A stretch of DNA of 64,000 bases from the NCBI GenBank assembly GCA_000004695.1, contig CM000150.2:3616001-3680000 (forward strand), given 5' to 3'. The stretch is from Dictyostelium discoideum. Taxonomy: Eukaryota. The position numbers and the translations under genes are program-made. This document shows positions 1 through 36,408 of the stretch, in pieces. The notes under the pieces were generated by a model. It saw only the letters and a program-made list of their open reading frames with translations. It was not told the DNA's origin and made no database searches. Positions within the stretch are counted from its first letter, which is position 1. The number at the start of each line of letters is the position of its first letter.

Positions 1-146
1 TTTTTATTACGACATACTCGTAATTTTCTATAAAAAAATTTTGATAAAAATCTTACTATTATTTTTTTTTTTTTTTTTTTTTTTAAAAATAAAAGAGAAT
101 TAATTGTTTATGAAAAATTACGTTGTAAAAAAAAAAAAAAAAAAAA

Positions 147-3100
147 ATGGTAAAATTTAAAATAGTGATATCATTTTTATTATTTATTATATATTGTAAT
201 TGTTTCACATTTGGTAGCTACCCATTTGATACAAAAAATTGGTCAACAAATGGTACACTATCATCATGTGTTTTTTATGATTTTGTAAATAACGATTATT
301 ATGATTTAAGTTCTATTATCATACCTGATCATCAAGGTTCTCATAGAGCAAGTTTTGATGCAGAACTTTCTGGTGGAATTCAAACATCTTATTTAATGTA
401 TTTCAATCCTTGTTTTAATGATCATATGTGTCCAGGTGGTCTTTCAGTAGGTTGTATTGCTATTTTTCAAAATTCGCAAACAATATATAATTCTGTTGGT
501 TCACTTTCAGAACCACATTTTGTTACATATAGAACAAACGGTATTACTATTAAATATCAATCAACTCTTTTACCATCAACAACATGTGCCTCTAATGGTA
601 ACCGTAGAACTTTGATTTTAGTTATTACTTGTGATCCAATTCAACAATTTTCAGTAACAAGTACTAATAACAGAAGAGTATTATGTGAACATACAATTAA
701 TATCGCTTCAAGACTAGTATGTAAAAATAAAGGAGTATTATTTAATCAAGGTCTATTTTATGATTTAACACCAATGAAATTGTAAGTTATTAAATTCTTT
801 TTCATATTTTTAATTATCCATTTTTTTATTTTTATTTTTTATTTTTATTTTTATTTTTATTTCCCACTTTTTTCAATTCATTTTTTTTAATTTTTTTTTT
901 TTTTTTTAATTTTTTTTTTTTCCAATAGATTAACAAGCACTTCACACCAAATCACCAATGATGACCAAACAAAAGATATTCTCTTTAATTTATTCGGAAA
1001 TGTAAATAGATGTGGTACTTTCGGTACATCAACATTAAGTTATCAATCATGTATTTTAACAGTTGCTAATAAAGCGATCATTATAAACTAGATTCAAGAT
1101 ATGCAACATCACCAAAATCAGTTATGGTAGGATCTCTCAGTCAACCAAGAACAATTACATTTACAAATGATGTAATAACTATACTTTATAGTTCAACAAC
1201 TGGTTTCACAGAATGCTCATTAAACGGTAACAAATATTCATCAAAGTATATTTTAATTTGTGATCCATTCACAGAATATTATGTAGATAAATTTACATTA
1301 GAATCACAATGTATTTATCAAATAAAAGTTTATACCAAATACGCATGTCCAACATTACGTTTATTCAAACGACAAATACAATATTATGACCTTTCACCAT
1401 TGATGTTGTAAGTATTAAATTTAGTTTTTTAATATTTTATTTATCGTGCCCCTCCTCTAAATAATTAACAATTCGGTAAATCTATATATATAGAGATTCA
1501 ACAAGAAATTATACTGCAAGTTATAGTACAGGAGAAATTATATTTAATATTGGTAATAGAGCACAAATTTGTAACGAACCCTTGAATGGTACAATTTTTC
1601 ATTTTGCTTGTCAATACGATCCAATCAATAGAGTATACAATCAAATCGCTCAAGCAAGTTTAGGTCAAAAGGTAACATATGATTTAAATCAAATTAAATT
1701 TGAATACTCTTCAAGACTAACAACTAGTTGCTCATCAAATTCCAATAAAAGAAATTTTATTATTGTTTTAAATTGTGACGAAAATCAACATTACCAATTG
1801 GTTTCAACTATTGAATCTCCTGCATGTGTATATACAGTAACAATTAAAACTAAATATGTATGCGAATCAACAATTTATTTTAATGCATTTAACTATACCT
1901 ATTATGATATTACTCCAATAAAAACGTAAGTTTAAAGTAATAATAACTAGGTAATAATAGTAAAAATAATATTGATTTTTATTAACAAACACAATATATC
2001 AAACTATTAATTTTAATTAGAACAAAAGATAGTCCAAAAACAGTGGATATCACTGTCAGTGGAGTCACAAATAGAGTAAGAATTTAACTTTTAAAAAAAA
2101 AAACTAAAACTAAAACTAACATATTTATTTATTATTTTTTTAAATAGCTTTATTATGGTATAGGTAATACTGTTAACTTTTGTACAAATCAAGCTACAGC
2201 AGTTCCTGGTGTAGATTATCAAGCTTGCCAATATATCAATGGTGTTGTTATTCATGTTGGTAGTTTAAAAAATACTTCTATATATATTGGTGATAGTAAT
2301 GATATATATATCGCTCATACATCAGTAACTGATTCAACTAGACCACCATGTAGAGGTAAATATCAAAGGGCTGACATTTTAAGTATGACATGTGATCCAA
2401 CGGCTACATACACTTTTGTCAGTGCCAAAGAGGTTTCTTCTAACGGGGGATGTCATTATTATATTTACATTAAAACCAAATATGCATGCCCAATTAATTA
2501 TGCACCAGTATTGCCAGCTGTTGGAAATCCATGTTTATACAGTTGTACACCACCAGGTGCTTTAAATACAAAAGATATAGTTAGTGTACTTTTAAATTTA
2601 GGCGTTTGTTTTTCAGAGATTAATAAATATGGTACAGGTGCTCAATCATTACTTGGTATATTCAACAATACTTGGGTTTTAAACCACAATGGATATGATG
2701 ATTGGATGGGTGGACAACTTTATTCACTATTATTAACAGGTAAACCACAAACATCGATTTCACCATATGTTATTTCAATTACACATGATAATTTATGTAC
2801 ATATGGTACCAATGGGTTAAGTAAAGCAAAAAATTCAATCAATGATTTTCTCACTATCACAAATGATCTTCTTGAAATTTCAAATCGTGCAGCCAGTTCA
2901 ACCGTTACCAAATATACATATTCAGATGGAGCAATTACATTATCAACACATAAACTTTTATCAACATCAACTGGAGGTCTTGCAATTATTATGTATAAAG
3001 GCTTGCTATGCCATTACTCAGTGGTTTCAAATATTCAAACTTTAGTTATTTCGAATTATTTGCTTTCATGTCCATATTATTCACTACCAATTACATTGTA

Positions 3101-6100
3101 TAGTTTAGCACCATCAACTGCGAAAATCGGAGATACTATTACAATTAATGGTGAAAATCTAGATAAAGACAACTATGATGTTTATTTTAAAATCATTCAA
3201 GATTCATATTCTGAAGTCAAAGCAACAATAACATCAAGAACAGCAAATACTGTAAAAGTAATCGTTCCAAAAGGTTTTGGTGGTGCCTTTGTTCTCACTC
3301 AAAATAGAATCAATAAGTTAATCTCTAATAATCTTGAATTTTCATACCCATCATCAACCATTGTCAAAGTAATTAGTCAACCATTTAGTACAGGTATCAT
3401 CAATAGATTCTTTGTCATTGGTGAATATTATCGTTCATTAATAACCAATATCACCATTTATCCATACATCGATAATATTGAAAAAGAAGCAATTTATTGT
3501 GAAATTGAAAAGTATTGTCCAAGTTCATCAAAAATTCCATCAATTCCAGGATCAGAAGTAGGTCATCCATGTATTGATTCAACAGTTTACTCTGAGAATG
3601 CCCAGTTTTTCAATTATTCCAAGTATGATGTTTTTGTTTGTATCAAATCATCATTAGGTGTTGGAAGTGGTATCATTAAATTCCCATCACAAACATTTAC
3701 ATTCGCATACTCTTATAAAGCACCTCTCTTATATTATGCACCACCTGGCGCTCGTATTCCAACTGATGGTGGTAGTTTTCAATTGAGTGGCAAAAACTTT
3801 CCACCAACACAAGAAATCATTGATCTCGGTTTGAACACATCTAAAATCATTTGGAATAATGATAATTTTGTTACATTCAAAGGAACAAATCTTACAAATA
3901 CCAACATCAATTGGAAGAGTTCAGATACGATTGTATTTATTGCGCCACCAGGTTTTGGTGAGTGGATCACCGTTTCAGTAACTGTCGGTAAACAAGCGTC
4001 AACAACTACATACCCAGGTGATTTAGATGAACGTCCAACTGGAAATTATACTTTGCATTATCTATTTCCAACAATTGTTGATTTATCAGCAGTTCCAACT
4101 GATGGTGGTGAAACTATAATAAAAGGTGCCAACTTTATTCCAGCTATCTTTGTAGGTCAAATTAATAATCAATCATTAATTGGTTCGCTACATTCAGTCA
4201 CGTTTAATAATGTTTTATCTCCATCATGGACATGGATTAACTCAACACACGTAAAAGCCATCGTACAAAAAGGTATTGGTACAATCTCTCCAATGGTAAG
4301 AGTTGGTGGTCAAAGATCAGATTTGTACCAACTTTTTGCAACATTATACAAAAAACCTGAATTAGATAATAAAAAATATGAAAACTTTGCAAATAGTAAT
4401 ATTTTAATAACTGGCTCTAATTTTGTACCAGTTGGTGTTTCAGCAGGTTCATCAAGTTCTGTTAAAATTGGAGGTATTCCTTGTAACTCTGTAACATGGG
4501 TAGATTCAAAATCTGTTATTTGTAATGTACCAATTGGAACTGGTGATAATTTAAATATCCAAGTAACAGTTGGAGATCAACAAACCGAATTAAATGATTA
4601 TTTCTCATATTTAGGGCAATGCGATTTCCTCTGTAGCGATTTATCAAATTTAGTAAGTTTTTAAACATTTTAATTACAGAGAAAAAAAGAAAAAAAAAAC
4701 TAAAAAATACTAATATATTATCATTTTTACCTCAAAGGAATTAGAAAAAGTTATTAGAGAGAATAAAAAAGATTTAAAGAGTACTCTTTTATTAACAGGC
4801 GTATGTTTAGAACAAATCAAGCAATATAATCTTACATATATTAAAAATAAAATTGAATCAAGTTGGATTGGAAATTCAATTATTAATGATTGGACAAGTG
4901 GTAAATTCTATAACTATTTCAAATCATCAGAATCATACTCAACAGTTAAAACACTTGCAAAATATATTACTCCAAAGAATCCATGTATTTATGATAATAA
5001 AAGAGTAAAGAATTCATTAGATTACCTTTTCGAAATCAATTCAGATATTTTCCATTTAATTGAACTTTCAATTTCATCAAAAATCAGTTATCCAGATTCG
5101 CCATATCAAACTTATTTCTATAAATCATCAAGTAACCCACAGTATGGTCTTTCAATTATTACATTTGATTCAGCAATTTGTAGCTTTACAGAATCAACTA
5201 TTCAAGACTACCAAAGTGGAAAAGTATTACAATCATGTTCAATCATTCCAATTATAAATCAAGTAATTAATCCAACAACAACACTTCAAGCACCATATCA
5301 ATATTCACTTACAATTATTGGTAGATTATTTGATAGTTCAACTAGAATATTTTTATCAGGTTATGAATGTCCAATCATTGGTAATATTGTTACAAATCAA
5401 AATGATTATATTCAAACTCTTAGTTGTTCAGTACCATCAGAAATCAAATCATACTCAGCCTCTCCAATTAGTTTTTACAATGGTTATAGTGAAAATAATA
5501 TATATAATTTCTTGTTGGATTTTAAAAAATCATTCTTTTTTATATATCCAATTTCAACAGTAACTCAAATTCAATACCCATCAAGTGGTCCAATTCAAAT
5601 GAATTCTGAAATTAAAGTAATTGGTTTTAATTTCTTCCCATATGGTATTACAAATCCAAACCTTAAAGTTTTTATTGATGATCTTGAATTAACTGATACT
5701 ATCTTTGGATTAACAAGCATAAATGGAGTTGATTCATTTTCATTTATTGCTTCTGGTTTAGGTTCTTTAAAGTATGTAAAAAAAAAAAAAATTAAAAAAA
5801 AAATTAAATTAAATTATTAATATATAAATTTCTTTTTAAAAGTTACATTCAATTATTTTATAGTAATAGTTTACCAATGATTATAAAAAATGGTGTTAAA
5901 TTAGAATTTTCATTTGAAAGACCAATTATTAATAGTATATTACCAACAAATGGAGATTACAATACAAAAGTTACAATTAATGGTAATAATTTTAGAAAAG
6001 GTCAATCAGTAAAAATTGGAGACTTATTAGTAAATGATATTGAATTCATTTCAAATCAAAAGATTATTGTTTCAGCACCATTTGGATTTATTAATGGACT

Positions 6101-9100
6101 TGTAGTTGTTTATTCAGATGATCAATACAGTTTAGAAGAAATATCATTTAGTTATCCTTCACCAATTATAGACCAAGTCATTCTTTCAAATTATGAATCA
6201 AAATTAAACACAACAGGTACAAATTATTTCACAGTAATAGGTAGAGGTTTAGGTACATACATTGCAGAACAAGTCGATATTATTATTAACCAAGAGTTTT
6301 ATGCAAGTTGCGAATTCGATTTCTGTGAAAGTTTAGAAATTATTGAAGATATAGATATAAAAGATCAAGGAATTTGTCAATATTTAAAATATAAAAATTA
6401 TCAATATATCAATGAAAACTTTGATATATTAAATTGTATTTTAGCTGATTCAATTGGTAAAGATAAATCAATCAGTATCAAAATTTCAGAATTCCAAAAC
6501 CAAACTTTCACCTACTCTTATTATGAACCATGGATTGAAAAACTAACACAAAACTCTTCATCAGCAACAACTGATGGTGGTGAAGTAATCGTTATAAATG
6601 GTTACAACTTTTTACCATTCGAAAATTTAAGTCCATACTATGAAAACAATGAAACTATTGCACAATGGTTAAATCAATCAGAAATATTAATTGGTGAAAG
6701 CTATCTTTGTCAATCAATTAATTGGACCAATTCCTATGAATTAAATTGTACAATCCCACCGGGAATTGGTGTTAATCATACAATCATTGTAAAAGTAGGC
6801 CTTCAATCATCAAATCATACTGATTATTTGTATTCTTACAATCCACCAAAACTTGATACAATCAATAATTCCACCAAAAATGAGACACATTACTATTCTT
6901 CAACAGATGGTAACAATGAAATTATAATAACAGGTAATAACTTTATTCCAAAAGAGTTATCAGATCATTACAACCAGAATGAAAATAAAACTATAAATTC
7001 AATACTATTAGGTAAACAATATTGTAATGAAACTATTTGGATTAATTCAACAATAGTTAAATGTAAACCATTAGCAGGTATTGGGTCAAATTACAAAATA
7101 ATCATTAAAGTTGGCAATCAAAATTCAAACGAAACCGTTTACTTCTCATATGAGAAGCCAATTTTAGATTTAAAGAATTACACAGGTTCAACAAATGGTA
7201 ATACTGAAATTACAATAACAGGTATCAACTTTATTCCAAAACAATTAGCAGATAATAATAATTTCAATCAATCAGAGAACTATATAATGATTGGTGATAA
7301 TAAATGTAATGGAATTATTTGGATCAATTCAAGAACAGTTAAATGTAAACCAATATCAGGTACTGGTACCAATCATAGAGTTATCATAACAGTTGGTAAT
7401 CAAAACTCAAATGAAACGGTCTACTTTTCATATGATAAACCAATTTTAGATATTAAAAACTATAGTAGTCCAACTGATGGCAATACTGAAATCACAATAA
7501 CAGGTGAAAACTTTATCCAAAACTATAATCAAGAAAAACATAATGAAAATGATAATTTCGTTAGAATCGGTGAAAATAAATGTAATGAAACAAAGTGGAT
7601 AAATTCGACAACAATTAAATGTAAAATAATTCAAGGTATTGGTTTAGATTATAAAATAGTTGTAACAGTCGCCAATCAACAATCAAATGAAAATGTTTTC
7701 TTTTCATATGAAAAACCAATGATTGACAGTAAAACACTATTAGCATCAACCAGTGGCAGTGAAACTATTAAAATTACAGGTACCAATTTCATTCCATCAA
7801 TTTTAGTAGAACATTACAACAATATAAAAAATAAAAATAACTCAATAAATTCAGTTACTATCAATAACGAGTTTTGTAATGATATTGCATGGATTAACTC
7901 AACAGAACTAACATGTAAACCATTAGCAGGAGTTGGAACTAATCATACCATATTCATTTTAGTTGGAACTCAAAAATCAAATCAAGTAAAATCATTCTCA
8001 TATAAACCTCCAAAGATTGAAGAGTTTAAATACTACACAGCACCAACACATTCCAATAAAATTATTACTATAACTGGTGAAAACTTTATTCCAATCGAAT
8101 TATTATCAAAAGACAACAGCAATAGTTCAGTACTTATTGATAATATAAAATGTGAAGAAATCAAATGGATTGATTCTACAAAAGTTTCATGTCAAGTTCC
8201 AGTAGGTCAAGGTAAAGATTTATCGATTAAAGTTAAAATTGAAAATCAAGAAACTGAAGAAAATCAACAATTTTCATATGATAAACCATTTATTCAATCA
8301 ATCAATCCAAATAAAGGAAGATGTAATCAAGAAGTATTAATTACAATTCAAGGTGATAGTTTTGGAAAGAGTGATCAACTAATTAAAATTGGTAATAACG
8401 AATGTCAAGATATTCAATTCTATCCAAATCATACATTTACATGTAAAGTTCCAATCGTGGAGAATTCAATTAAATCCATTGTTTTATTAAATGTTGGAAA
8501 TCAAGATTCAAACGATAACATTACATATAAATACTATGGACCACCAGAAATTAAAAGTATTGGTTTACCATCATATCTTTCATTCAAAGGTGATGATTTA
8601 ATAACAATCATTGGTAATAACTTTATAGAATATGATGATGGATCTGATGAAATTGTTGTTAAATTTAATAATGAACCAACAGCTATCATTGAAAAAACAG
8701 AAACATCTATTAAAATTAAAACTCTTAGTGGTGATGAATTTAATTTACCAATTGCTGTAGAATTAAATGGTCAAATAAGTAATATCGATACTTCATTCGT
8801 TTACTCAAATCCAATAATTGAAAGTGTAACACCATCATCAAGTAGCTCAAAATCAAATACTCATATCATCATTAAAGGACATAATCTTGGATACTTAACA
8901 AACACTCCCAAAATTACAATTGGAAGTAGCAATTGTTTAAATATCAATACTATATCTCCAAATGAAGTTCGTTGTATAGTGTTGAAATCAAGCGCAGGCG
9001 CCAAACAATTAACATTAACCTATAAAAGTTATCAACCAACCTATTCACAATTCACTCATGATGATGACAGTGATAGCCACGATGACAGTGGAAGCCATGA

Positions 9101-10352
9101 TCATAATGATCCTAATGGACCAAAAGATACTATAATAGGTATTATCGGAAGTGCAATTGGAGTATCAGTATCAGGAGTCTTGGCTGGATTAATACCAACT
9201 ATTTTCGGTAATGGAACATCAGTAGCCACTACGGCCGCAACAACAAGGGCGGTAGATACAGCGGTAGCGGCAGCAACTACAGCAGCAACAGCAACAGCCA
9301 TTGCCAGTGCAACGATCGAAGGTGTTGCTGTAGTCGTTACAAGGGTATCAGTAATAGCAGCAACAGCAGGTGGTGTTATCGTTACTGCAATTGTAACAGC
9401 AACAGCCATTCTTATTTCAGGTGGAAGTACACCATCACCAACCCCAACCATAACTCCAACCATAACTCCAACCATAACTCCAACTATTTCACCAACTCCA
9501 ACACCAACCGATAACTATTGGGTAAGATGTATGGTCGATTATTCAAGATTAGCTTTACAAGTCGATAATCTTTACGGTCAAGATATAGTATGTATTGATG
9601 GTAATGGAATTTCATCAATTTTCAACGAATCATTCTCTTGTAAACCTGATCTTATTAACGATGGTATGATATGTGCTCAACAACATCAAGATGGAACAAA
9701 TTCAACAACCACATTTGGTAATTCAACATTAATTTGTCATATTGACCCAACAAAATCATGTGAAATTTCACCACCATTCATCATACCATCCGATCCAATT
9801 GAAGATGATGAATATTCAAATATTTTAGAATGTCAATATAATCTCATTGAAAATTCATTATCAACACACTCTAATAATAGTCCATTAAGATGTTATAATA
9901 ATGAAACTGAAAATTACTTCATTATGAATACTACACTTTCATGCTCAAAAGATGAATCATTAAGTCAAGATAAAGATACGATTTCTTGTTTATCAGATAC
10001 AGATGATACTCAAATCTTTTTCTTTAAGAACTCAATTACATGCATTACAGATTATCCATACTATAAATGTACAATGAAATCTCAATCATCACCAGATGAT
10101 AACATAATTCCAGAACCAACATTACCACCAACTCCATCAATTGATGATGATTCCACATGTATTTATGATTCAGCCAATCCATATTCAATAGATCTCCAAC
10201 CAACAACTGGAACTAATGTCAAATGTCCAACAAATGAAAAAGAACTTCATTATGATCTTTCAACTTATCTAACATGCACGGATAATATCACCCATAAAAA
10301 CTCCACCTATTCAATTTCTTACTCAACTTATGTTTGTATTAAAACTAAATAA
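147..10352 (+). CDS. Giant multi-exon gene: signal peptide, 3 N-terminal Cys modules (each ends ..CDP...K(T)KYxCP), about 20 IPT/TIG repeats, GC-rich Ala/Thr/Val-rich hydrophobic segment, (PT)n linker, C-terminal Cys-rich domain (tgr-like IPT/TIG family protein, about 3100 aa)
   Basis: ATG at 147 with a hydrophobic N-terminus (MVKFKIVISFLLFIIYCNCFTFG). Proposed exons: 147-781, 929-1407, 1494-1925, 2021-2075, 2148-4652, 4738-5771, 5864-10352. Donors are GTAAGT at 782, 1408, 1926 and 4653, GTAAGA at 2076, and GTATGT at 5772. Acceptors are T-rich ..AG. Phases are consistent across every junction except inside exon 2. Exon 7 carries the repeated motif ..ITGxNFIP..CNxxxWINSTxxKCKxxxGxGxNxxIxVxVGNQxSNExxxFSY.KP, typical of IPT/TIG domains. 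The stop codon TAA is at 10350-10352. Confidence 0.75.
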
Positions 10353-10495
10353 ATAAAATATAAATAAATATAATCTTTTATCATTAAACGTATGGAAGGA
10401 TCTTCCTTCCTTAAATTTCAATAAATTATTATTTTTTTTTTTTTTTTTTTTATGTTTAGATATTATTTATTTTATATATTTAATATTGTAATCTT

Positions 10496-10700
10496 TTACA
10501 TATAATGATTCAGATGCTGAACCAGTTTATTCCTCACCAGTGCATTTGCCGAATTGAGCAAGAGAGTTACACTTGGCACGATGTAAATAAACTTACGAGC
10601 AGCTTCAACGTTGGCAGATTCACCTTTCCAAGTGAAGGGTACGAACGTTGAATTCACCGTTCGTACCAATTGTTCAGAGGTGAGCAAATTTGGAATTCAT
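10496..10700. ncRNA. Candidate structured small RNA: about 200-bp GC-rich island in poly(A/T) intergenic DNA, with a perfect 10-bp stem
   Basis: Local GC is much higher than the flanks. A perfect hairpin GGTACGAACG (10638-10647) / CGTTCGTACC (10658-10667) encloses a 10-nt loop. The only long ORF (minus, 10496-10687) is not ATG-initiated, its nearby AAAATG is out of frame, and it uses rare codons (CGA, ACG, CCC, TCG, CTG). Confidence 0.25.
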
Positions 10701-15590: not shown

Positions 15591-17444
15591 ATGAATATAA
15601 TAAAATCAAATAAAAAGATTAAAAAGAATAAAATTAATAATGAAAATTTAGATAATAGTAAATTATTTTTTAAAGTATGGAGAAATTCATATATAAGATA
15701 TCAAATTTTTCAACATTTAAGATTATATAATATTCATAAGAATCAAATATCATTAACAAATGAACAATTAGAAGAATATAAATATTTAAATTATTGTAGA
15801 TCAATTTATTTAGTTGGTGATAAAATTGATAGTTCATTTTTAAAGGATAAATTACCAGATAGTGTTGAATGTTTATCATTTGTTTATTATTTCAACCAAC
15901 CGATATTAAATAGAATCGATTTCAATTACAATTCAAATTATCATTGTAATTTGAAATCGATAACCTTTGGATACGACTTTAATCAAGAAATTAAAGAGAC
16001 TGCACTACCAAGATCATTAGAGTCTTTAAAATTTGGTAGATTATTCAATCAGGAGTTGACCGAAACTACATTTAAAAATCAAATTAATTTAAAATCAATA
16101 GAATTTGGTGCAAAGTTTAATAATAAAGGTAAACCAATAAAGGTTGGAGTATTTCCAAAATCCATTGAATCTTTAAAGTTTGGTTTTCATTTTAATTCAT
16201 TCTTTGATGCGCATTCATTACCTAATGGTTTAAAATTAATTGAATTGGGTTCAAATTATTATCAAGATTTAAATCAAGAGGATATATTACCACGTTCACT
16301 TACAAGTCTATCATTATCAAATGAATATAAAATTCCAATCACTTTAAAAACAATTAAATCATTACCAAACTTAATGCATTTAGATTATCCAGGTTTCATT
16401 TTACCATTTGGTTCGAATGATGAAGTTTTACCATCTTTAAAATCACTTCGTAGTTTTATTGAATGGAATGATGATGATGATGATGGTGATGTTGGTGATG
16501 GTGGTGGTGGTGGTGGTGGTGGTAGTAGTAACTCAAAATTACCAAGTTCTTTAAATAAATTAACAATATGTGGTACAAATAAAATTTTTAAAAATATTTC
16601 AATACCAATTGGTTTAAAGGAAATTTATATTAAATCCTTATTAACATTTGATTCATTTCATAATGGTAAAGATAATGGTGATGTTGACATTTCAGATTTA
16701 CAGTTAGAGAAAATGACAATTGATATTCAAAGAGTGTTTGCAGAAGATATAAAACTTGGTTTACCAAAATTCTCAATACCAACATTTAAAAAATTGGAAA
16801 TTCTTTATTTAAATAGTGAATTCACTCAAGATATCTTTCCATCCACTATTACTTCATTAACATTGGATACCTATAATATGGTTTTTAATTCATACTCTCT
16901 ACCTAAATCATTAAAACATTTGAAATTACCAAATTATAATCAACCATTCACCAATATTGATTCATTTCCATGGAGAACTTTAGAGGAATTAGAATTTGGT
17001 ATGCCATTTTTTCAATCATTCCCACCATCGATATCTTTTAAAAATTTAAAATCTTTAACTATTGGTATTGATTGTTTTATGTCATTCTCAAAAAATTCAA
17101 CCGTTGATACTTTGTTCCCAGTTTTAGAATCAATTGTTTTTATAATTCCTCAAGAACTTAAATATATAATTTCAACCGATTGTTTCTTCCAATTATTACC
17201 TATTTCTATAAAGCATTTAAAACTTGGAAAGTATGGATTCGATAAACCATTCAATGATGAATCAATCATTTGGCCACCTAAATTAACAACTATTTCAATA
17301 CCTAACAGAATAATTCATTTAATTTTTGACAAAAACTTTTCATTACCACATCAATTAAAAAGTTTAGTTTGTGACAGGCTATCTGCTGTTGATGAATTTT
17401 ATTTTAAAATTATAAAAGTTTGTCCAGAAATAAAATTTTATTAA
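15591..17444 (+). CDS. FNIP-repeat-containing protein
   Basis: ATG at 15591, single exon. The 617-aa product carries many tandem repeats of ..LxSLxFGxxFNQxIxxxxLPxSLxxLxFG.., the Dictyostelium FNIP repeat. Confidence 0.8.
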   Translation: MNIIKSNKKIKKNKINNENLDNSKLFFKVWRNSYIRYQIFQHLRLYNIHKNQISLTNEQLEEYKYLNYCRSIYLVGDKIDSSFLKDKLPDSVECLSFVYYFNQPILNRIDFNYNSNYHCNLKSITFGYDFNQEIKETALPRSLESLKFGRLFNQELTETTFKNQINLKSIEFGAKFNNKGKPIKVGVFPKSIESLKFGFHFNSFFDAHSLPNGLKLIELGSNYYQDLNQEDILPRSLTSLSLSNEYKIPITLKTIKSLPNLMHLDYPGFILPFGSNDEVLPSLKSLRSFIEWNDDDDDGDVGDGGGGGGGGSSNSKLPSSLNKLTICGTNKIFKNISIPIGLKEIYIKSLLTFDSFHNGKDNGDVDISDLQLEKMTIDIQRVFAEDIKLGLPKFSIPTFKKLEILYLNSEFTQDIFPSTITSLTLDTYNMVFNSYSLPKSLKHLKLPNYNQPFTNIDSFPWRTLEELEFGMPFFQSFPPSISFKNLKSLTIGIDCFMSFSKNSTVDTLFPVLESIVFIIPQELKYIISTDCFFQLLPISIKHLKLGKYGFDKPFNDESIIWPPKLTTISIPNRIIHLIFDKNFSLPHQLKSLVCDRLSAVDEFYFKIIKVCPEIKFY

Positions 17445-17883
17445 TTTTTTTTTCTTTTTTTATTTTTTTTCCAAGATAAAAATAAAATTAAGATAAAAAT
17501 AAAATAAAGATAAAATTTAATAATTATTTTTTTTATTGTTTTTATTTTATTAGTGTCATATAAGGCTTTTAGTCACCCTAGGAATAATATCTTAATTATT
17601 TTTTTTGAAAATTTTTGTCAGTTTTTAATTTAATTTTCATGAGGTGTTTTTTTAAGTTTTTAAAAAAAAAAAAATAAAAAAAAAAAAATATTTTGAGATA
17701 TTATTTTGGCGGTGATTAAAAATGTTTTTTTTTTTTTTTGTCCTCAATCCAATTATTTCGAAAATAAATATAAAAAAAATATAAAAGTAAATATAAAAAC
17801 AAAAAATAAAAATAAAAATAGAAATAAAAAAAATAAACAAAAATAAAAATAATAAAAATTAAAAAAAAAAATAATAAATAATT

Positions 17884-19911
<2,028 letters not shown>

Positions 19912-23053: not shown

Positions 23054-25360
23054 CTATGACCTTTTGTTCGAATTTTGGCTCTGGTTGCTTTCATCAGTGT
23101 TGAACAATTTGTGACAGATTATCTTCCATAATTGGTGTGCTATTATTCCTATGAGATTGGGGAAGATTCTCTCAGTTCTGTTGTATTTTGATATGTCTAA
23201 GGTATCCATTGACCATCTGTGGATTTTGATGAATGATAATTTGTTAACTGTTGATATGATGGTTTTTTCAATATCTAGGATATCTTGGCATAGAGTGAAG
23301 AGGTGAGAATAAGGGTCTCTGAATAGGTGGCCACAGATCTTGCATCTGGTGTCTCTTTCGTGGTTGATACCTGGAAGTGATCTTGAGAAGAATCTGAAGA
23401 GGGTGTTTCTACCTTTTTGGTGAGAAATGCTGTTGATGTTTATGAATACTTTGGGTATTGCTGTGTTGTATCTCACCGCCCATAACTTCTGCCATTCTGT
23501 TCTTCTTGGTGTTGGGTGTCTGTCTTTGATCATGAGTTCGTAAATTTCTTTCAGTTTTAGTGGTTCATCATTGTCGTTTCTTATACAGTCTGGAAGTTCA
23601 TTTATCTTTGGATGGTTTTGGTAAAATTTGACTCTGAATACACCCCAGTGTCTGCACATATCGTTGAGGGTTGAAGTGTGGGCTTTTTTTCTACTTAATT
23701 GCTCCATGTACCATTCTTGTAAGGTATTGTTGTTGTTGTTGTAGTTGTTATGGAGTAGCCTGTTCATGTACCAGATTTTGAATGCTATATGTCTTAGTTC
23801 TATATCCCATAATTTTATGCCTCCTTCTTTCCAATCTGCATATGCTCTGTCTATTTTCATCATAGTTTTGTATTTTCTCTCTTCTGTATATGTATTCTTA
23901 ACTGAGGAGAATAAGAACCATCTGGTCATGTTATTGATTTCCTCAATTTGTTCTTCATTTAGATTATCCATGTATTGATGGTATGTTAATTTGGATAGAA
24001 CGTATGTTTTGAGAATTGTCATCTTTGCCTTCATCGTTATTGCTTGTGATTTCCATTTGATTAGATTGTTTTTCATTTCTTGGATTAAAGTGTTGTATTT
24101 TGAATTTAAACCTGTTTTGGTGAAATTGAGGCCAAGATATCTTTCTGGGACTGTAATCTCTTGGAATGGTAGATCGTGTGGTTTATCTCCTATTGCTATC
24201 ATTACTGTTTTCTCTTTGTTTAACGATGATGATGTTGCTGAGCAGTACTTTTGGATTTTAGTATTAATTTTCATTAGTTCTTCTGTGGAGTTTGTAAAGG
24301 TTGCTATGTCGTCAGCAAATGCAGTGAGTTTTCATGATTTGGAATTTGGTAGAGTGAAGCCTTTGATTGTATTATCATTGATGATATCTATTAGAAGTGG
24401 TTCTAAAACTAGAGCAAAGATTGTTGGTGATATTGGGTCTCCTTGTTTTGTTCCTCTTCTGATTGTTATTCCATTGACTAAAAAGTCGTTGATCTTTATT
24501 TTGTTTTTAGTATCTTTGAGTAGGTTTAGTAGGATCGCTGTGAATTTTGGGGGGATACCAATATGCTCTAATGTTCTTGTGATACTCTTGTGGCTGATTG
24601 AATCGAATGCTTTGTTAAAATCGTAAAAGGTAATGAGTGTATTGTTCTTTCTTTTGTTACTTATTTCTATTACTTCCTTCATGATCTGAATATTGTCTTG
24701 GATGAACCTGTTTGGAACAAAGCCTTTTTGAAATTTGTTGATAATTTTACTGGTGATATCTAATAATCTACTGTTGAGAATTTTGCTTAAAATTTTGTAA
24801 TCTGTATTGAGAAGGGTGATTGGTCTTCTATTTGAAATGTTTAGTTCATCTCCTTTTTTGAATATTGTTGTTATTACTCCTTCTTTGAATTTTGTGGGGA
24901 TTTCTTTCTTATTTGTGAGGAGGTCGTTGAAAGCTATAGTCAATATTCTTGCTATTGAGTTGATGTGGTACTTGTAGAATAGTGCATTGATACCGTCTAA
25001 ACCTGGAGATTTGTGGATACTTGAAGTTTTGATTGCTTTGGTCACTTCATGTATTCTCATCGGTCTGTCTATCTCGAGTTTCTTGATTAAATCAACGTCT
25101 ACTTCCCATTTTTCTAATAACTTCTTGTGGGTTTCTTCGTTATCTTCTTTCTCTTCATAGAATTCAACAAATCTTTTTGCTATGTTCTCTTTATCTGATA
25201 TGGTCTTATTATCTTTATCTTTTATTTGGAATATTGATTTATCTTTGGCTCTGGATTTAAGGATACTTGTGAGGTATTTGCTTGGTGTTTCTTGATGCAG
25301 GTGGAGTTTTAATTTGATATCCCATGCTTTTACCTTTTTAAAAAAAAAAACTCCAATCAT
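23054..25360 (-). pseudogene. Retroelement ORF2 reverse-transcriptase region, 5'-truncated and frameshifted between 24274 and 24332
   Basis: Two adjacent minus-strand ORFs (24332-25360 and 23054-24274) lie in different frames. The first has RT motifs (FYDFNKAFD; QGDPISP). The second has a CKICGH..C zinc-finger-like tail. Confidence 0.65.
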
Positions 25361-25463
25361 TCCTAAAAATATTTTATTTTATATTTAGAAAGGAATGATT
25401 GGAGTTTTCCAATCATTTCTAAAAATATTTTATTTTATATTTAGAAAGGAATGATTGGAGTTT
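25349..25463. repeat. Tandem palindromic hairpin units (GGAAAACTCCAATCATTCC ... GGAATGATTGGAGTTTTCC) inside the retroelement cluster
   Basis: Two units of about 55 bp with 19-nt inverted arms around an AT loop. One isolated arm is also present at 22681-22699, next to T19. Confidence 0.7.
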
Positions 25464-25467
25464 TCCA

Positions 25468-25510
<43 letters not shown>

Positions 25511-25733
25511 TGGATTAACAAGATTGATATATGTCCATCTGTGTTAATACGAGTTTTTATTTAATATTTATTTATAGGCTTATCATTTAAGCTGAAGGGT
25601 TATTTTAATCATATGAATTGATCTAAAAGATATAATATTTGGGAGAGATGATTCTGGAATACAATAGTAATTAGCTGTTGTTTTTCTTAGCTTGATCGTT
25701 GAGGTGAGAAGGATCTTAGGATCTTTGAAGTTA

Positions 25734-26549
25734 TTATGGTCTTTTGCTGATAGAGTTATGGTTGGATGACAGCTCCCTTGAATAATCGTTAAGTAGGAAG
25801 TCTATTTTCTTAAGCATTATGCTTGAGAGGATTGAGGATTTTTTTAATCTCCATCTGCGCTTGTTCATCTGTATGTTGGGTAGAGTGAAAGTGGTTGATA
25901 GGAAGTTGTGATCTGATAGAGGTATGTCGTTAATTTTTGGGGGGATTAGGTTCCTTAAGTATAATTGGCTGTAGTTGATTAAGCTATTGTTAAGGTATAT
26001 TCTGTCTAGTCTCCTTTCCAAGATTCTTGTGAGGTAATGTATCGTTCTTGAGAAGGTGGGTCTTTTATTTAGTTGGTCCATATCCATTAGGTTATTTGAA
26101 ATTCTGATGGCTTCGATTACTGTGGCCATCTCATCTGGGGATTGTGTTGTCAAGTTGCCTTGGTCATCACTTGATGTGTGATTGTCATTGAAGTCTAAAC
26201 AGTTGAAGTCGCCTGCTATGATGTCGATGTTTTTATTAGGGTTAGACGTAAGGTTGTGGTATTGGTTGTTGAAGTGTTTGTTTAGTGTTGAAGCTAGTGT
26301 TTTTCTTTTATCAGGTTGGGCCGGGGCGTATATGGCCAAGATTCTCGTTGTGGTATCTTTTATTAGAATGTCTGATATTATTAGTCTACCTTCTATTATG
26401 AATATTGGTGAGAGTTTTATGTTTTGGTTGTTGTGGTTTAGTATTCCTATTCCGTTGCCTCTGTTGGTTGCGCTAATGATGGAGCCAGAGAATAGCTGGT
26501 GTGCTTGTGTTGCGTCGGCGTTGAGTTCATTGACTATGGTTAGTGCCAA
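25734..26549 (-). CDS. Retroelement ORF2 N-terminal apurinic/apyrimidinic-endonuclease-like domain, truncated
   Basis: A 271-aa ORF with a GDFN motif typical of the APE domain of non-LTR elements. It ends in a stop, followed by a UTR-like sequence and A40. Confidence 0.6.
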   Translation of the reverse strand: MALTIVNELNADATQAHQLFSGSIISATNRGNGIGILNHNNQNIKLSPIFIIEGRLIISDILIKDTTTRILAIYAPAQPDKRKTLASTLNKHFNNQYHNLTSNPNKNIDIIAGDFNCLDFNDNHTSSDDQGNLTTQSPDEMATVIEAIRISNNLMDMDQLNKRPTFSRTIHYLTRILERRLDRIYLNNSLINYSQLYLRNLIPPKINDIPLSDHNFLSTTFTLPNIQMNKRRWRLKKSSILSSIMLKKIDFLLNDYSRELSSNHNSISKRP

Positions 26550-26653
26550 TGAGTTTGGGGGGGATTGGGATTTGATAAAGTCTGTTTTGTTTTTGAAGGA
26601 GGTGTCAGTGCCCCAACCTCTGACATTCCATTGGTTGATTTTGATTACTACTA

Positions 26654-27904
26654 TTATGAGATGATATCGATCTCCTCTTGGGAGTCGTATAGCTGCGGTT
26701 TGGATGGTGAAGGGTAGATACTCCCTATGAAGCTCTCAATGATTCCTTTCCTTTCTTTTTTGACAGGTGTCTTAGGGGTGGATGGGATGTAAGGGTTGCT
26801 TCTGTTTATTGTTGGTGAGAGTTGGTTGACTTCATTGTTTGAGTGGATTTCCTCGTTCTTGCGTTTATGTGATGGAGGGATGTTTAGTGTCTTCTCTCTG
26901 TTTTCCGAGGATGAATGGGTGTTAGTGCTCGTTTTGTTGGCATTGTCTTTTTGGATGGCGTTGGATGTTGTGGTAGTGGTTGTGGTGGGTTTGACAGATT
27001 GAGATTCTGCTGGGTTTTTGCGGGGAAGAGGTAGAGATGACTTTTTTGCTTGGGCTTTTTTCTCTTGGGTTGATTGTTTATCAGACTGATTGTTTGCTGG
27101 GTTGTTTGTTTGTTGTTGTGGTTTTGGTTGAGAGGATTTGATTGCTATCCTGTTTTGGGTGTTAGGAGGATCTGTCATCTCATCTTCTAATGGTTCCTCC
27201 GTGTTGTTTGTCTCTACTTTCTTGTTTTTCTTTTGTGAGGAGTAGGTTTTGGTGGCCGTTCTGATGGTAAAGTTTGCGATTTCTGTAATGTGTTGGCCAG
27301 ATTTCATTTGATCGCCTATTTTGCATTCTATTAGACCGAATACTATGAGGTGGTCGGTGGAGTATATAGTATTGTATATTGCATAGGGTATTTCTTCTGC
27401 AAAGGCAGTTTTGATGATGGCGTCCACTATTCCTGCCTTTTCTCTGGGAATTCTTACTCTTCTTGTGAGGACGTGGAAGTCTCTACTGGAGGTGATGAAG
27501 GTTCCCAATTTGCTTCTATCTCTAATGATATTTATGAGAGATTGTTCGTTTTTAATCATCAGGTGGATCGTTTTTCTAGTTCCTTTGCCTATGTATATCT
27601 TGTCGATTGGGATATCGTAGTTTGAGAGTGTTTTTCTCATTTCTTCTAACCCCTTGAGATCCATTTTGGGGAATTCGAGTGTAATTGGGTAGAATCCGTT
27701 GTTCTTCTCGTAGGTTGAGAGCGCAGTCATGTTCAATATGGTCTCGCAGTATTTGGAGATGTCTTTGAGGCCTATTGATAGTTTGGGGTAGGTCTCCTTT
27801 ATCTCTGCTGTTTTTGTGGAGAATTCCTTAATGAAGTTCTCCGATGCCTCGTCCATATGGGTGGAGGGGTTGGCCATTTTAGCCGCGTCTGCGTAGGAAT
27901 TCAT
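26654..27904 (-). CDS. Retroelement ORF1 (TRE-like)
   Basis: A 416-aa ORF starting at ATG 27904, directly upstream of the endonuclease/RT ORFs on the same strand. It has a Ser/Thr/Pro/Gln-rich C-terminal half. Confidence 0.6.
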   Translation of the reverse strand: MNSYADAAKMANPSTHMDEASENFIKEFSTKTAEIKETYPKLSIGLKDISKYCETILNMTALSTYEKNNGFYPITLEFPKMDLKGLEEMRKTLSNYDIPIDKIYIGKGTRKTIHLMIKNEQSLINIIRDRSKLGTFITSSRDFHVLTRRVRIPREKAGIVDAIIKTAFAEEIPYAIYNTIYSTDHLIVFGLIECKIGDQMKSGQHITEIANFTIRTATKTYSSQKKNKKVETNNTEEPLEDEMTDPPNTQNRIAIKSSQPKPQQQTNNPANNQSDKQSTQEKKAQAKKSSLPLPRKNPAESQSVKPTTTTTTTSNAIQKDNANKTSTNTHSSSENREKTLNIPPSHKRKNEEIHSNNEVNQLSPTINRSNPYIPSTPKTPVKKERKGIIESFIGSIYPSPSKPQLYDSQEEIDIIS

Positions 27905-28180
27905 CTCGATGGGATTCCTTTGAATCGGCGATTTGTAAGTTAGATCTGTAGATCGTGGTGGATTGGTGATTTTTTTTGAAAGATTGGTTAAAATTGACCG
28001 AGATTAAGGATAGAAAAGGATGAATTACTTTTCACGTGTATCTTGTATCCTCTTGATCGCGGTACGGTTTTTTCACTTTCCAATAATAGTTGTATTAAAG
28101 GTTGGTGGTGTTTGAAATCCTGCAACTCGGACCCACTTAATTTAAGGAATTGAACCGGCGATCAATTGTTTCCAGTTATA

Positions 28181-33782: not shown

Positions 33783-36408
33783 ATGGCCGATTTAAACTCT
33801 GTTATTAGAATTAAACCATTTCATTTCATTCACGTAAGTTTATAAAAAAAAAAAACAATAAAAAAAAAAGTAATCATTATTAATTTATTTTTTAATTTTT
33901 TATTTTTTTTATATAAATTAATTTTAGGTATTAGATAATAATACAAATGTTACTAGAGTTGAAGTTGGACCACAAACTTTTACAAGACAAGATCATGAAA
34001 AGTTAGTAAGTGGCCCAGAACCAATGATTATGATCCCACAACGTAACTATTGTACAATTTCAAATCCAGTAGTTCGTAATGAAAATGGTTCATTAGTATT
34101 GGATGAATATGGTCAAGTTAAATTAAGACATGGTGATGAAGAGATTCGTTTCTCACAAGAACCATTCCCATTATATCCAGGTGAAAAAATTTCAGGTAAA
34201 GTTACCGCTCTCCAAGTTGTTGCACCATTAAAGGCTTTACGTCTTCGTGCTCTCCGTGATTTCACTGAAGCTAAAGTCACTCATGTTGCTGGTGATGAAT
34301 GGTTATTTGAAGGTCCAGCAACCTATCTCCCACGTATTGATGTTAGAATTGAAGAAGAAATCAAAGCAACCATCATTGGACCAAATCAAGCACTCAAATT
34401 ACGTGCCAACAAAGCATGTTCCGATCGTTCAGGTGTTGCAAGAAAAGCTGGTGAAGAGTGGTTAGTTCGTCAACATGGTGCCTACCTCCCAGGTGTCGAT
34501 GAAAAAGTCGTTGAAATTGTAAATGCCTACGTCTTAACTGACAAGAAAGCACTCCACCTCAAAGCCACTAAAACCTTTTTAGATGAAACCAGAAAAACAC
34601 AACGTAAAGCTGGTGAGGAATGGTTAGTTGTTAGCACCGATGCTGAAACTCATATCCCAGATGTTTATGAACAAGTCGTTGGTGAAGTTCATATTACTAC
34701 CCTCTCAAATCGTCAATACTGTGTTGTTTTGGATCCAATTGGTGCCAATGGTAAACCACAACTTGGTCATAAACAATTAAGAAAGGGTGAACTCGCTTTC
34801 TTCTTAAACCCAGGTGAATCATTAGAAGGTAACAAAATTCACAATATCTACGTTTTAACCGAACAAGAAGCACTCTTACTCCGTGCTAAAGAAACCTTTT
34901 CCATTGATGGTGAATCTCATTTAGCTGGTGATCGTTGGATGATCTATGGTCCATGTGATTATGTTCCACCAGTTCAAGTTGAAGTCGTTGAAAAACGTGA
35001 ATCCATTCCATTGGATGAAAATGAAGGTATCTACGTTCGTGATATTAAAACCGGTAAAGTTGCATCAATCAAAGGTCAATCATACATGTTAAAAGCAAAT
35101 GAAGAACTTTGGGAAAAAGTTTTACCACGTACTGTCGAAGAAGTTCTTGCCAAAGAATCACTCAACCCAGAATTCACTGATAATCGTGATTCAACTCGTG
35201 TTGTTACCTATCGTGCTCCACACAATAGTGCTGTTCAAATCTATGATTACAAAGAAAAGAAATCACGTGTTGTCTTTGGTCCAGATCTTGTTATGTTAGG
35301 TCCAGATGAACATTTCACCGTTCTCTCTTTATCTGGTGATAAACCAAAACGTCCACATCAAATCAAAGCTATCGCTCTCTTTTTAGGTCCAGATTTCATG
35401 ACTGATGTTGTCATTGTCGAAACTTCTGATCATGCTCGTCTCTCCCTTAAATTATCATACAATTGGGAATTCAAAGTTGATCGTTCCAAGATTGAAGATG
35501 CTCAAAAGATCTTCCAAGTACCAGATTTTGTTGGTGACTCATGTAAAGCTATTGCCTCAAGAGTTAGAGGTGCTGTTGCTGCAGTCTCTTTTGATGATTT
35601 CCACAAACGTTCCGCTGAAGTCATCCGTCAATCCGTTTTTGGTTTAGATGAATCTGGTGAAGTCCGTAAGAACTTCTCTTTCAATTCAAACAACCTTGTC
35701 ATCACCAACATTGATATTCAATCTGTTGAACCAGTCGATCAACGTACTCGTGATTCACTCCAAAAATCTGTCCAATTGGCCATTGAAATCACCACCAAAT
35801 CACAAGAAGCTGCTGCTCGTCATGAAGCTGAACGTCTTGAACAAGGTGCTCGTGGTAGACTCGAACGTCAAAAGATTCACGATGAAGCTCAAGCAGAGTT
35901 AGCTCGTAAAGATTTATTACAACTCCAAGCTCAATCAGCTGCAGTCGAGTCAACTGGTCAAGCTACCGCTGAAGCTCAAGCTACTGCTGAAGCTGCTAAC
36001 ATTGCTGCTGAAGCCAATGTTAAACAAGCTGAATTAAAAGCTCAAGCCACCAAGATTCGTTCAGAATCTGAAATTTCTCTCTTAAAAGCCAAGAGAGAAA
36101 ATGAACTCTCATACCAAAAATCAATTGATGAACTCGAACTCACCAAACAATCTGATCTCGCTGAAATTGAAGCCTCCAAATTCAAAGCAATCGTTGAATC
36201 CATTGGTAGAGATACCCTCAAATCAATTGCTTGTGCTGGTAATGAAATGCAAGCTAAATTATTACAAGGTTTGGGTCTTAAATCATTTATGATCACCGAC
36301 GGTAAATCACCACTCAACCTTTTCGATACTGCCAACGGTATCATTGGTAATAACAATCAAATGGTAAACATGTCAAATGCTGCCAAACAATCTGGTAGAA
36401 GAAATTAA
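33783..36408 (+). CDS. mvpA: Major vault protein (843 aa)
   Basis: Exon 1 is 33783-33833 ([17 protein letters not shown], donor GTAAGT). Exon 2 is 33928-36408. The product aligns along its whole length with vertebrate MVP: [33 protein letters not shown]; [11 protein letters not shown]; the vault repeats; the shoulder region; the C-terminal coiled coil. The 843-aa length fits the alpha paralog, but choosing alpha over beta is a recollection, not something I verified. Confidence 0.9.

Follow-up and report, generated by a model that had tools for sequence, protein, structure and literature searches.

What kind of protein is encoded by the very long gene at positions 147-10352 of a 64,000-nucleotide, AT-rich stretch of chromosome 1 of Dictyostelium discoideum AX4 (hereafter the window), and can this copy still make it? 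An earlier note on this DNA had described a very large IPT/TIG-repeat protein, bracketed by a novel Cys module and possibly akin to the Tgr proteins of kin recognition. The first part of this description is borne out, as we find a dictyostelid gene for a giant IPT/TIG protein with a signal peptide. From its domain content, its intact relatives and a single-base lesion, we propose that it is probably a recently inactivated member of a family of giant lectin-headed, TIG-stalked surface glycoproteins restricted to the D. discoideum group.

Dictyostelium makes phosphomannosyl glycans. We know of no mannose-6-phosphate-receptor-type lectin that has been assigned a role in this organism, and our literature search gave no more than a passing mention of an MRH-domain gene. 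If our reading is true, glycan-based recognition in a social amoeba would gain a concrete candidate: a family of giant surface proteins with CI-MPR-type lectin domains on a TIG stalk, whose genes are duplicated, mosaic, intact or not depending on the strain, and adjacent to nuclease genes with which they are paired.

A lectin-headed, TIG-stalked architecture

The product begins with an N-terminal signal peptide and four CI-MPR-type MRH lectin domains. Its middle consists of a module that we call X followed by about five IPT/TIG domains, then a second X copy (X') followed by about 12 more. It ends with an acidic segment, a hydrophobic region with two transmembrane-like segments, a PT-rich linker and three lineage-specific Cys repeats. 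The features are as follows (residue numbers are those of the repaired product; HMM, hidden Markov model).

147-10352, plus strand: whole gene, seven exons; 3209-residue product only once a 1-nucleotide deletion is repaired (from splice sites and translation)
147-215, plus strand: putative signal peptide (residues 1-23), hydropathy peak 2.03 at residues 1-25
216-746, plus strand: MRH module 1 (residues 24-200), module HMM E = 5e-45; degenerate site with Q and R present, E and Y absent
747-1372, plus strand: MRH module 2 (residues 201-360), spans intron 1 and holds the frameshift; E and Y present, Q and R absent; 98% identical to paralogs
1079-1091, plus strand: frameshift site, one G missing between 1079 and 1080; single-base gap in blastn against the copy L003; coding sequence length modulo 3 = 2
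1373-1890, plus strand: MRH module 3 (residues 361-504), complete Q-R-E-Y tetrad (in ACQ, NKR, IESPAC and CVY), from Pfam and the alignment to CI-MPR domain 9
1891-2510, plus strand: MRH module 4 (residues 505-655), spans a 55-nucleotide micro-exon; Q, R and Y present, E displaced; from the module HMM and the alignment to CI-MPR domain 3
2511-3095, plus strand: X module (residues 656-850), six invariant Cys, mixed alpha/beta, no known family
3096-4616, plus strand: IPT/TIG block 1 (residues 851-1357), about 5 domains, 4 of them significant
4617-5310, plus strand: X' module (residues 1358-1560), second X copy, spans intron 5
5311-9065, plus strand: IPT/TIG block 2 (residues 1561-2781), about 12-13 domains, includes a tandem array
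9066-9122, plus strand: acidic His/Asp-rich segment (residues 2782-2800), immediately before the hydrophobic region (from translation)
9123-9422, plus strand: hydrophobic A/T/V/I/G-rich region (residues 2801-2900), with two transmembrane-like segments (residues 2803-2828 and 2875-2900)
9423-9509, plus strand: PT-rich linker (residues 2901-2929), a 12-nucleotide repeat present 3.8 times, of different length among paralogs
9510-10349, plus strand: C-terminal Cys-rich domain (residues 2930-3209), three tandem repeats of about 85 residues with 6, 6 and 4 Cys

Three-frame translation of positions 1-10700 placed the exons, all on the plus strand, at 147-781, 929-1407, 1494-1925, 2021-2075, 2148-4652, 4738-5771 and 5864-10352. 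The six introns all start with GT (GTAAGx in five, GTATGT in one) and end with AG, and the reading frame is kept from exon to exon. The introns carry indels and are less conserved than most coding segments (79% identity to one paralog). All six junction peptides recur in the full-length relatives P0005 (3198 residues) and P0010 (3199 residues) from 'D. cf. discoideum', which share the domain architecture as well; these are gene predictions themselves, and the agreement is not transcript evidence. The seven exons proposed earlier are thus retained, whereas the single open reading frame of about 3100 codons read through them is not, owing to the frameshift discussed below.

Among the N-terminal modules, module 3 scores above the Pfam cut-offs for PRKCSH_1 (31.6 bits in context, 26 bits when scored by itself; cut-off 23) and ATG27 (28.1 bits, cut-off 27), and module 4 matches CIMR below the cut-off (E = 0.0023). 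Modules 1 and 2 are tied to the others by internal homology (phmmer, 1e-6 to 1e-15). A profile built from 14 modules of four proteins matches CI-MPR with E = 6.8e-45, in alignments that cover all of its 147 positions, and also matches glucosidase II beta and erlectin. In the same 14 modules, a Cys framework extends over about 145 residues, with C38, C106 and C135 invariant and C51 nearly so. By profile similarity, we assign the N-terminal modules to the MRH, or CI-MPR, repeats (Pfam clan of PF00878, PF13015 and PF09451). They had been read as three unrecognised modules of about 100 residues, each ending in CDP..(K/T)KYxCP; they are in fact four, of 145-160 residues and of a known kind, and module 1 ends in SRLVC instead of TKYxC.

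We took the positions of the binding tetrad from alignments to CI-MPR domains 3 and 9, not from a structure. In module 3, the R, E and Y align with those of CI-MPR domain 9, which binds mannose-6-phosphate. The tetrad is retained in the paralogs despite an identity of only 66-74% between copies in modules 3 and 4. Module 3, with all four Q-R-E-Y residues, and module 4, with three of the four, are the candidates for glycan binding. In intact members of the family, the MRH head might bind mannose-type or phosphomannosyl N-glycans of a partner glycoprotein.

The stalk is recognised by Pfam with strong significance: the TIG profile (PF01833) gives E = 1.2e-35 over six stretches and 2.4e-106 over nine, 15 in all, and iteration of an HMM on the protein's own sequence recovers 15 significant copies and two weak ones. 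The TIG array of the earlier note therefore stands, with a count slightly below the 20 or so repeats it had given. About 17 such Ig-like domains would form a long, stiff stalk that keeps the lectin head distant from the membrane. Within TIG block 2, a tandem array of 282 nucleotides is present in 2.5 copies at 7023-7720 (76% matches), as left by a recent internal duplication of TIG domains.

One X module, of about 200 residues, precedes each TIG block, and the two are homologous to each other. Neither these modules nor the 100-residue hydrophobic region figured in the earlier architecture. Among the proteins that we collected, X modules are found only in the family of the window gene and in P0017, a D. 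dimigraforme protein; a weak similarity to X' also lies ahead of the TIG array in P0021, a protein from another eukaryote. Profile searches of PDB with the X module and with the C-terminal repeats gave no match.

Both transmembrane-like segments reach high Kyte-Doolittle peaks (2.01 and 2.09), and both ends of the hydrophobic region are conserved in P0005. The two segments could form a hairpin membrane anchor, so that the C-terminal repeats, rich in disulfides, would lie outside the cell together with the large N-terminal part. GC content rises locally to 43-44% over this region, and a 124-residue ATG-initiated open reading frame lies on the minus strand (9101-9475) opposite these GC-richer codons; most likely it merely results from the biased run of GCx, ACx and GTx codons and is not a gene.

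The PT linker and the Cys-rich C-terminal domain had both been noticed before and are present, the latter slightly longer than the 270 residues given (280, with 16 Cys). A word-index search with the C-terminal domain matched nothing, missing even known relatives, and was replaced by a full scan with HMMER across 1.84 billion representatives. This returned only six relatives, all from D. discoideum, 'D. cf. discoideum' or D. dimigraforme. Among them is DDB_G0289223, a 99-residue AX4 fragment on chromosome 5, which looks like what is left of a further family member. Another, P0009 (ACTFIT_008347, 244 residues), is a stand-alone protein made of these Cys repeats only, with three repeats at 33% identity. 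Pfam and PDB searches with the domain gave no match. We also considered a relationship with the MRH modules, which had been suggested by the similar endings; hhalign gives a probability of 0.5% against the MRH profile, and the ending YVCIKTK is accordingly the fifth-cysteine position of a truncated last repeat and not an MRH-like motif. The C-terminal domain thus differs from the N-terminal modules, and the protein is not bracketed by one module.

Overall, this is a new combination of mostly known parts with two lineage-restricted modules, X and the C-terminal repeats. The earlier impression of a new architecture was right in this sense: the overall combination was not described in the literature searched, where we found no paper on an MRH and TIG protein in Dictyostelium, and all relatives come from recent assemblies and are annotated as 'hypothetical protein'.

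A probably frameshifted copy with intact relatives

The summed exon length is 9629 nucleotides (modulo 3 = 2), and an in-frame TAG at 1089-1091 ends translation after 265 codons. By blastn, L003, a 94%-identical copy from another strain, carries one extra G at this point (GCGATCGATTATAAAC, against GCGATC-ATTATAAAC in the window). The peptide at the site of the lesion is AIDYKLDSRY or AINYKLDSRY in every relative, and L003, P0001-P0003, P0005 and P0010 are all intact there. Restoring the G yields one open reading frame of 3209 residues with no further lesion. Over 660 codons compared with L003, omega (dN/dS) is 0.25 (dN 0.0235, dS 0.096), far from the value near 1 of relaxed constraint, which indicates that the inactivation, if real, is recent. 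The window copy is most likely a recently inactivated pseudogene whose relatives in other strains are intact, and it cannot make the product of about 3100 residues that had been predicted for it unless the reference base call is wrong.

In a coarse Nei-Gojobori calculation of dN/dS by segment against the paralogs, omega lies between 0.12 and 0.55 in most segments; the exceptions are the hydrophobic region (0.76) and the segment TIG6, whose value of 1.6 rests on only 2 synonymous differences. The gene was under purifying selection until recently. We make no claim of positive selection, omega being below 1 in all segments except the small TIG6.

Several observations weigh against this reading. 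Modules 1 and 2 each lack half of the binding tetrad, and the X module and the C-terminal repeats are modelled at low confidence only (pLDDT about 52). The gene may also be intact in reality, since the frameshift depends on a single base of one assembly, and a wild-strain assembly, GCA_054883475.1, annotates a 3195-residue product at the locus. That assembly is 99.89% identical to window positions 5588-27461, and the last 4765 nucleotides of the gene are identical. When we enumerated all frame-restoring pairs, 34 GT..AG pairs could bridge the lesion, and only one, at 1051-1091 (41 nucleotides), yields exactly 3195 residues; this suggests that GCA_054883475.1 carries the same deletion and that the predictor spliced around the lesion. 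The 3195-residue product bridged in this way was not found by exact look-up in the protein collection, which also counts against us; neither the 265-residue truncated product nor three single-exon open reading frames had a match in the same look-up.

A genuine short intron that rescues the frame of exon 2 was considered and rejected: the candidates, of 41-317 nucleotides, have weak donors and delete conserved MRH residues including a Cys/Q position. The 41-nucleotide pseudo-intron is kept only as a suggested explanation for the 3195-residue annotation.

The alternative is that the missing G is an assembly error and that the gene is intact in living AX4, encoding the full 3209-residue protein. 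The difference is of just one base, omega is 0.25 with no other disabling lesion across 9.6 kb, and a near-identical assembly calls a 3195-residue product at the locus, all of which would fit an intact gene. The deletion nevertheless lies outside any long homopolymer (GATC^ATT), a location atypical of read errors. An intact gene of seven exons also predicts 3209 residues and not 3195, the length that the 41-nucleotide GT..AG bridge gives exactly, although this bridge is unconfirmed; and the protein collection holds no AX4 product of this gene, although it holds that of its neighbour DDB_G0269802. We regard an assembly error as somewhat unlikely, and favor a real and recent frameshift. For genome annotation, the window copy should be treated as frameshifted, and the 3195-residue product predicted at the locus probably masks the lesion by an implausible 41-nucleotide intron.

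In the wild strain, family members lie in two tandem clusters (L001 and L002) on the same contig. These hold full-length genes, for products of 3382, 3197 and 3198 residues, as well as internally deleted copies (P0002, and P0003 with P0006). Between successive family members lies a minus-strand gene for a DNase II-like protein of 775-804 residues (L001:7277-9915 and 16043-18678; L002:7352-9947 and 16818-19509), arranged head-to-head, 5' end to 5' end, with the next family member. The encoded protein combines a signal peptide with a complete DNase II domain, in which both HxK motifs are present, and with a C-terminal extension of some 320 residues that matches no family.

The window copy is the last of one cluster and adjoins an RNase H2 subunit gene. 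Its upstream neighbour falls outside the window, no DNase II gene lies downstream of it, and no further paralogs were found within the window. L003 is an unplaced 5.8-kb contig of strain ACTFIR; its positions 3097-5781 differ from window positions 147-2541 by about 6% of nucleotides, in exons and introns alike, and the gene upstream of its family copy is not a DNase II gene. The L003 copy may be a paralog and not an allele.

Divergence from the intact relatives is mosaic. Identity is 98% in module 2, 70-74% in module 3 and 66% in module 4. Over window positions 747-2510, module 2 has a dS of 0.06 against the cryptic-species relatives and modules 3 and 4 have 0.29-0.54. Along the whole gene, dS varies by segment from 0.02 to 0.54, as expected for gene conversion among paralogs. 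The sharp boundary between module 2 and modules 3 and 4 points to either gene conversion or segment-specific constraint.

Beyond the gene, the window contains several other features. A gene for RNase H2 subunit B (about 11.2-12.6 kb) and a WD-repeat-like gene (minus strand, 12.6-14.8 kb) lie upstream of DDB_G0269802, which corresponds exactly to the open reading frame at 15591-17441 (617 residues, FNIP repeats, AX4) and adjoins a gene for a 675-residue protein (the two spanning 15591-19911). Several minus-strand open reading frames of a non-LTR retrotransposon occupy 23054-28003: the orthologous locus is annotated RVT_1, other frames are gag-like or endonuclease-like by appearance, and the element is shared with the near-identical wild-strain assembly. 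A long plus-strand open reading frame at 33928-36408, judged by eye, encodes a putative major vault protein.

Possible roles of the intact proteins

Extracellular matrix proteins of Dictyostelium typically have PT-rich, mucin-like linkers joined to Cys-rich repeats, and in the window gene a PT linker is likewise joined to such repeats. The protein might therefore be fully secreted into the matrix of the sheath, stalk or spore coat, with the A/T/V/G-rich stretch as a low-complexity spacer. The middle of the hydrophobic region is indeed low-complexity Ala/Thr and fast-evolving (omega 0.76), and no cytoplasmic domain is recognisable. Yet the conserved parts of the region are its two ends, which reach Kyte-Doolittle values of 2.0-2.1 over at least 19 residues, and the distant relative P0021 also has a transmembrane-like segment right after its TIG array. 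These features argue for a membrane anchor, and we consider a wholly secreted matrix protein unlikely.

A second possibility, raised by the earlier note, is a Tgr-type receptor for kin recognition or allorecognition: a polymorphic surface protein with TIG repeats that would bind its matching partner on adjacent cells. Tgr proteins have a signal peptide, IPT/Ig E-set repeats, a single transmembrane segment and a short tail within about 900 residues; their genes occur in head-to-head pairs, many AX4 tgr pseudogenes are intact in other strains, and the genome-wide average difference between strains is about 0.3% (bioRxiv 10.1101/2025.10.22.684067). The window family has TIG arrays, a signal peptide and transmembrane-like segments, and forms tandem clusters in which each copy stands head-to-head with a partner gene. 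The 6% nucleotide difference in the other-strain copy, far above the genome average, the dS mosaic (0.02-0.54) suggestive of gene conversion, and the probable inactivation in AX4 of a gene whose relatives are intact in other strains would all suit such a receptor. Against it, the head-to-head partner is DNase II-like and no TIG gene, and the protein is about 3.5 times larger, with four MRH and two X modules and with two hydrophobic segments followed by 310 residues. A search with the TIG half, in which 8000 word-sharing candidates were scored, returned seven proteins, of which none bears the name Tgr. Nearly all segments have an omega below 1, and the 94% copy, on its unplaced 5.8-kb contig, may be a paralog instead of an allele. 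We found no tie to Tgr beyond the common TIG domains, and a Tgr-type role appears quite improbable.

A lysosomal-enzyme sorting or capture receptor, functionally analogous to the mannose-6-phosphate receptor and with the DNase II-like glycoprotein encoded beside each paralog as cargo, is very improbable: the MRH modules are closest to CI-MPR repeats and module 3 has the tetrad, family members take turns along the clusters with DNase II-like genes whose products have signal peptides and HxK motifs, and P0021 fuses a DNase II domain to an X-like region and a TIG stalk, but the cytosolic tail with sorting motifs is absent, vesicular sorting offers no obvious use for a stalk of about 17 TIG domains, no DNase II gene lies downstream of the window copy (the upstream side being outside the window) or upstream of that in L003, and the P0021 fusion may be a merged gene model.

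The lectin-headed, TIG-stalked surface glycoprotein is the reading that we retain, and the nuclease neighbours invite one further proposal. P0021 (EukProt gene4566-5690_t, 2454 residues) comprises a DNase II domain (residues 5-301), an X'-like region, at least seven TIG domains, a transmembrane-like segment and about 700 more residues. This is suggestive of a functional link, if it is not a merged gene model. Intact family members and the divergently transcribed DNase II-like genes could form a two-gene surface module, in which the MRH head captures the secreted DNase II-like glycoprotein by its N-glycans and the TIG stalk displays it about 60 nm from the cell; P0021 would be a covalent version, and the choice of partner would depend on the fast-diverging modules 3 and 4. 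A two-gene module of this kind might act on extracellular DNA, as in prey biofilms or DNA traps, or in non-self discrimination. This is highly speculative, and we would put little weight on it as a whole.

Comparison with known systems

The closest known counterpart of the lectin head is CI-MPR. The four window modules are homologous to its repeats over their whole length, sharing the YDLSPL start, the Cys framework and an ending of the type C.Y.I.I.TKYAC. The window protein differs in having just four MRH repeats, followed by TIG arrays rather than more MRH, and no fibronectin-II insert. Instead of the many MRH repeats, single transmembrane segment and cytosolic sorting tail of a CI-MPR-type sorting receptor, it has this short head and two hydrophobic segments with no such tail, and two of its four modules lack half of the binding tetrad.

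The resemblance to TgrB1 and TgrC1 lies in the species, the signal peptide, the IPT/TIG repeats and the anchor-like hydrophobic segments, and in genes that are clustered, duplicated and paired head-to-head, with pseudogenes in AX4 that are intact in other strains. The window protein departs from them by its size (3209 residues once repaired), its MRH head, its X modules and its extracellular-type C-terminal Cys repeats; its family is paired with DNase II-like genes and not with a second TIG gene.

Among individual proteins, P0004 (CYY_005925 of Polysphondylium violaceum) shares the head alone: its MRH modules, again four in tandem, are of the subtype seen in the window protein (25% identity; E = 1e-35 to 1e-47 with the module HMM), and it has no TIG stalk, X module or C-terminal repeats. 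P0021 matches the X'-like region and TIG array (24-28% identity to residues 1381-2768) and passes directly into its transmembrane-like segment, with a DNase II head in place of the MRH modules and another C-terminal part. Closer to the window family, P0017 (ACTA71_000090 of D. dimigraforme) carries an extra N-terminal region of 430 residues, and only four TIG stretches and no C-terminal Cys repeats were detected in it by our searches; its four MRH modules, two X modules and TIG repeats follow one another in the same order as in the window gene.

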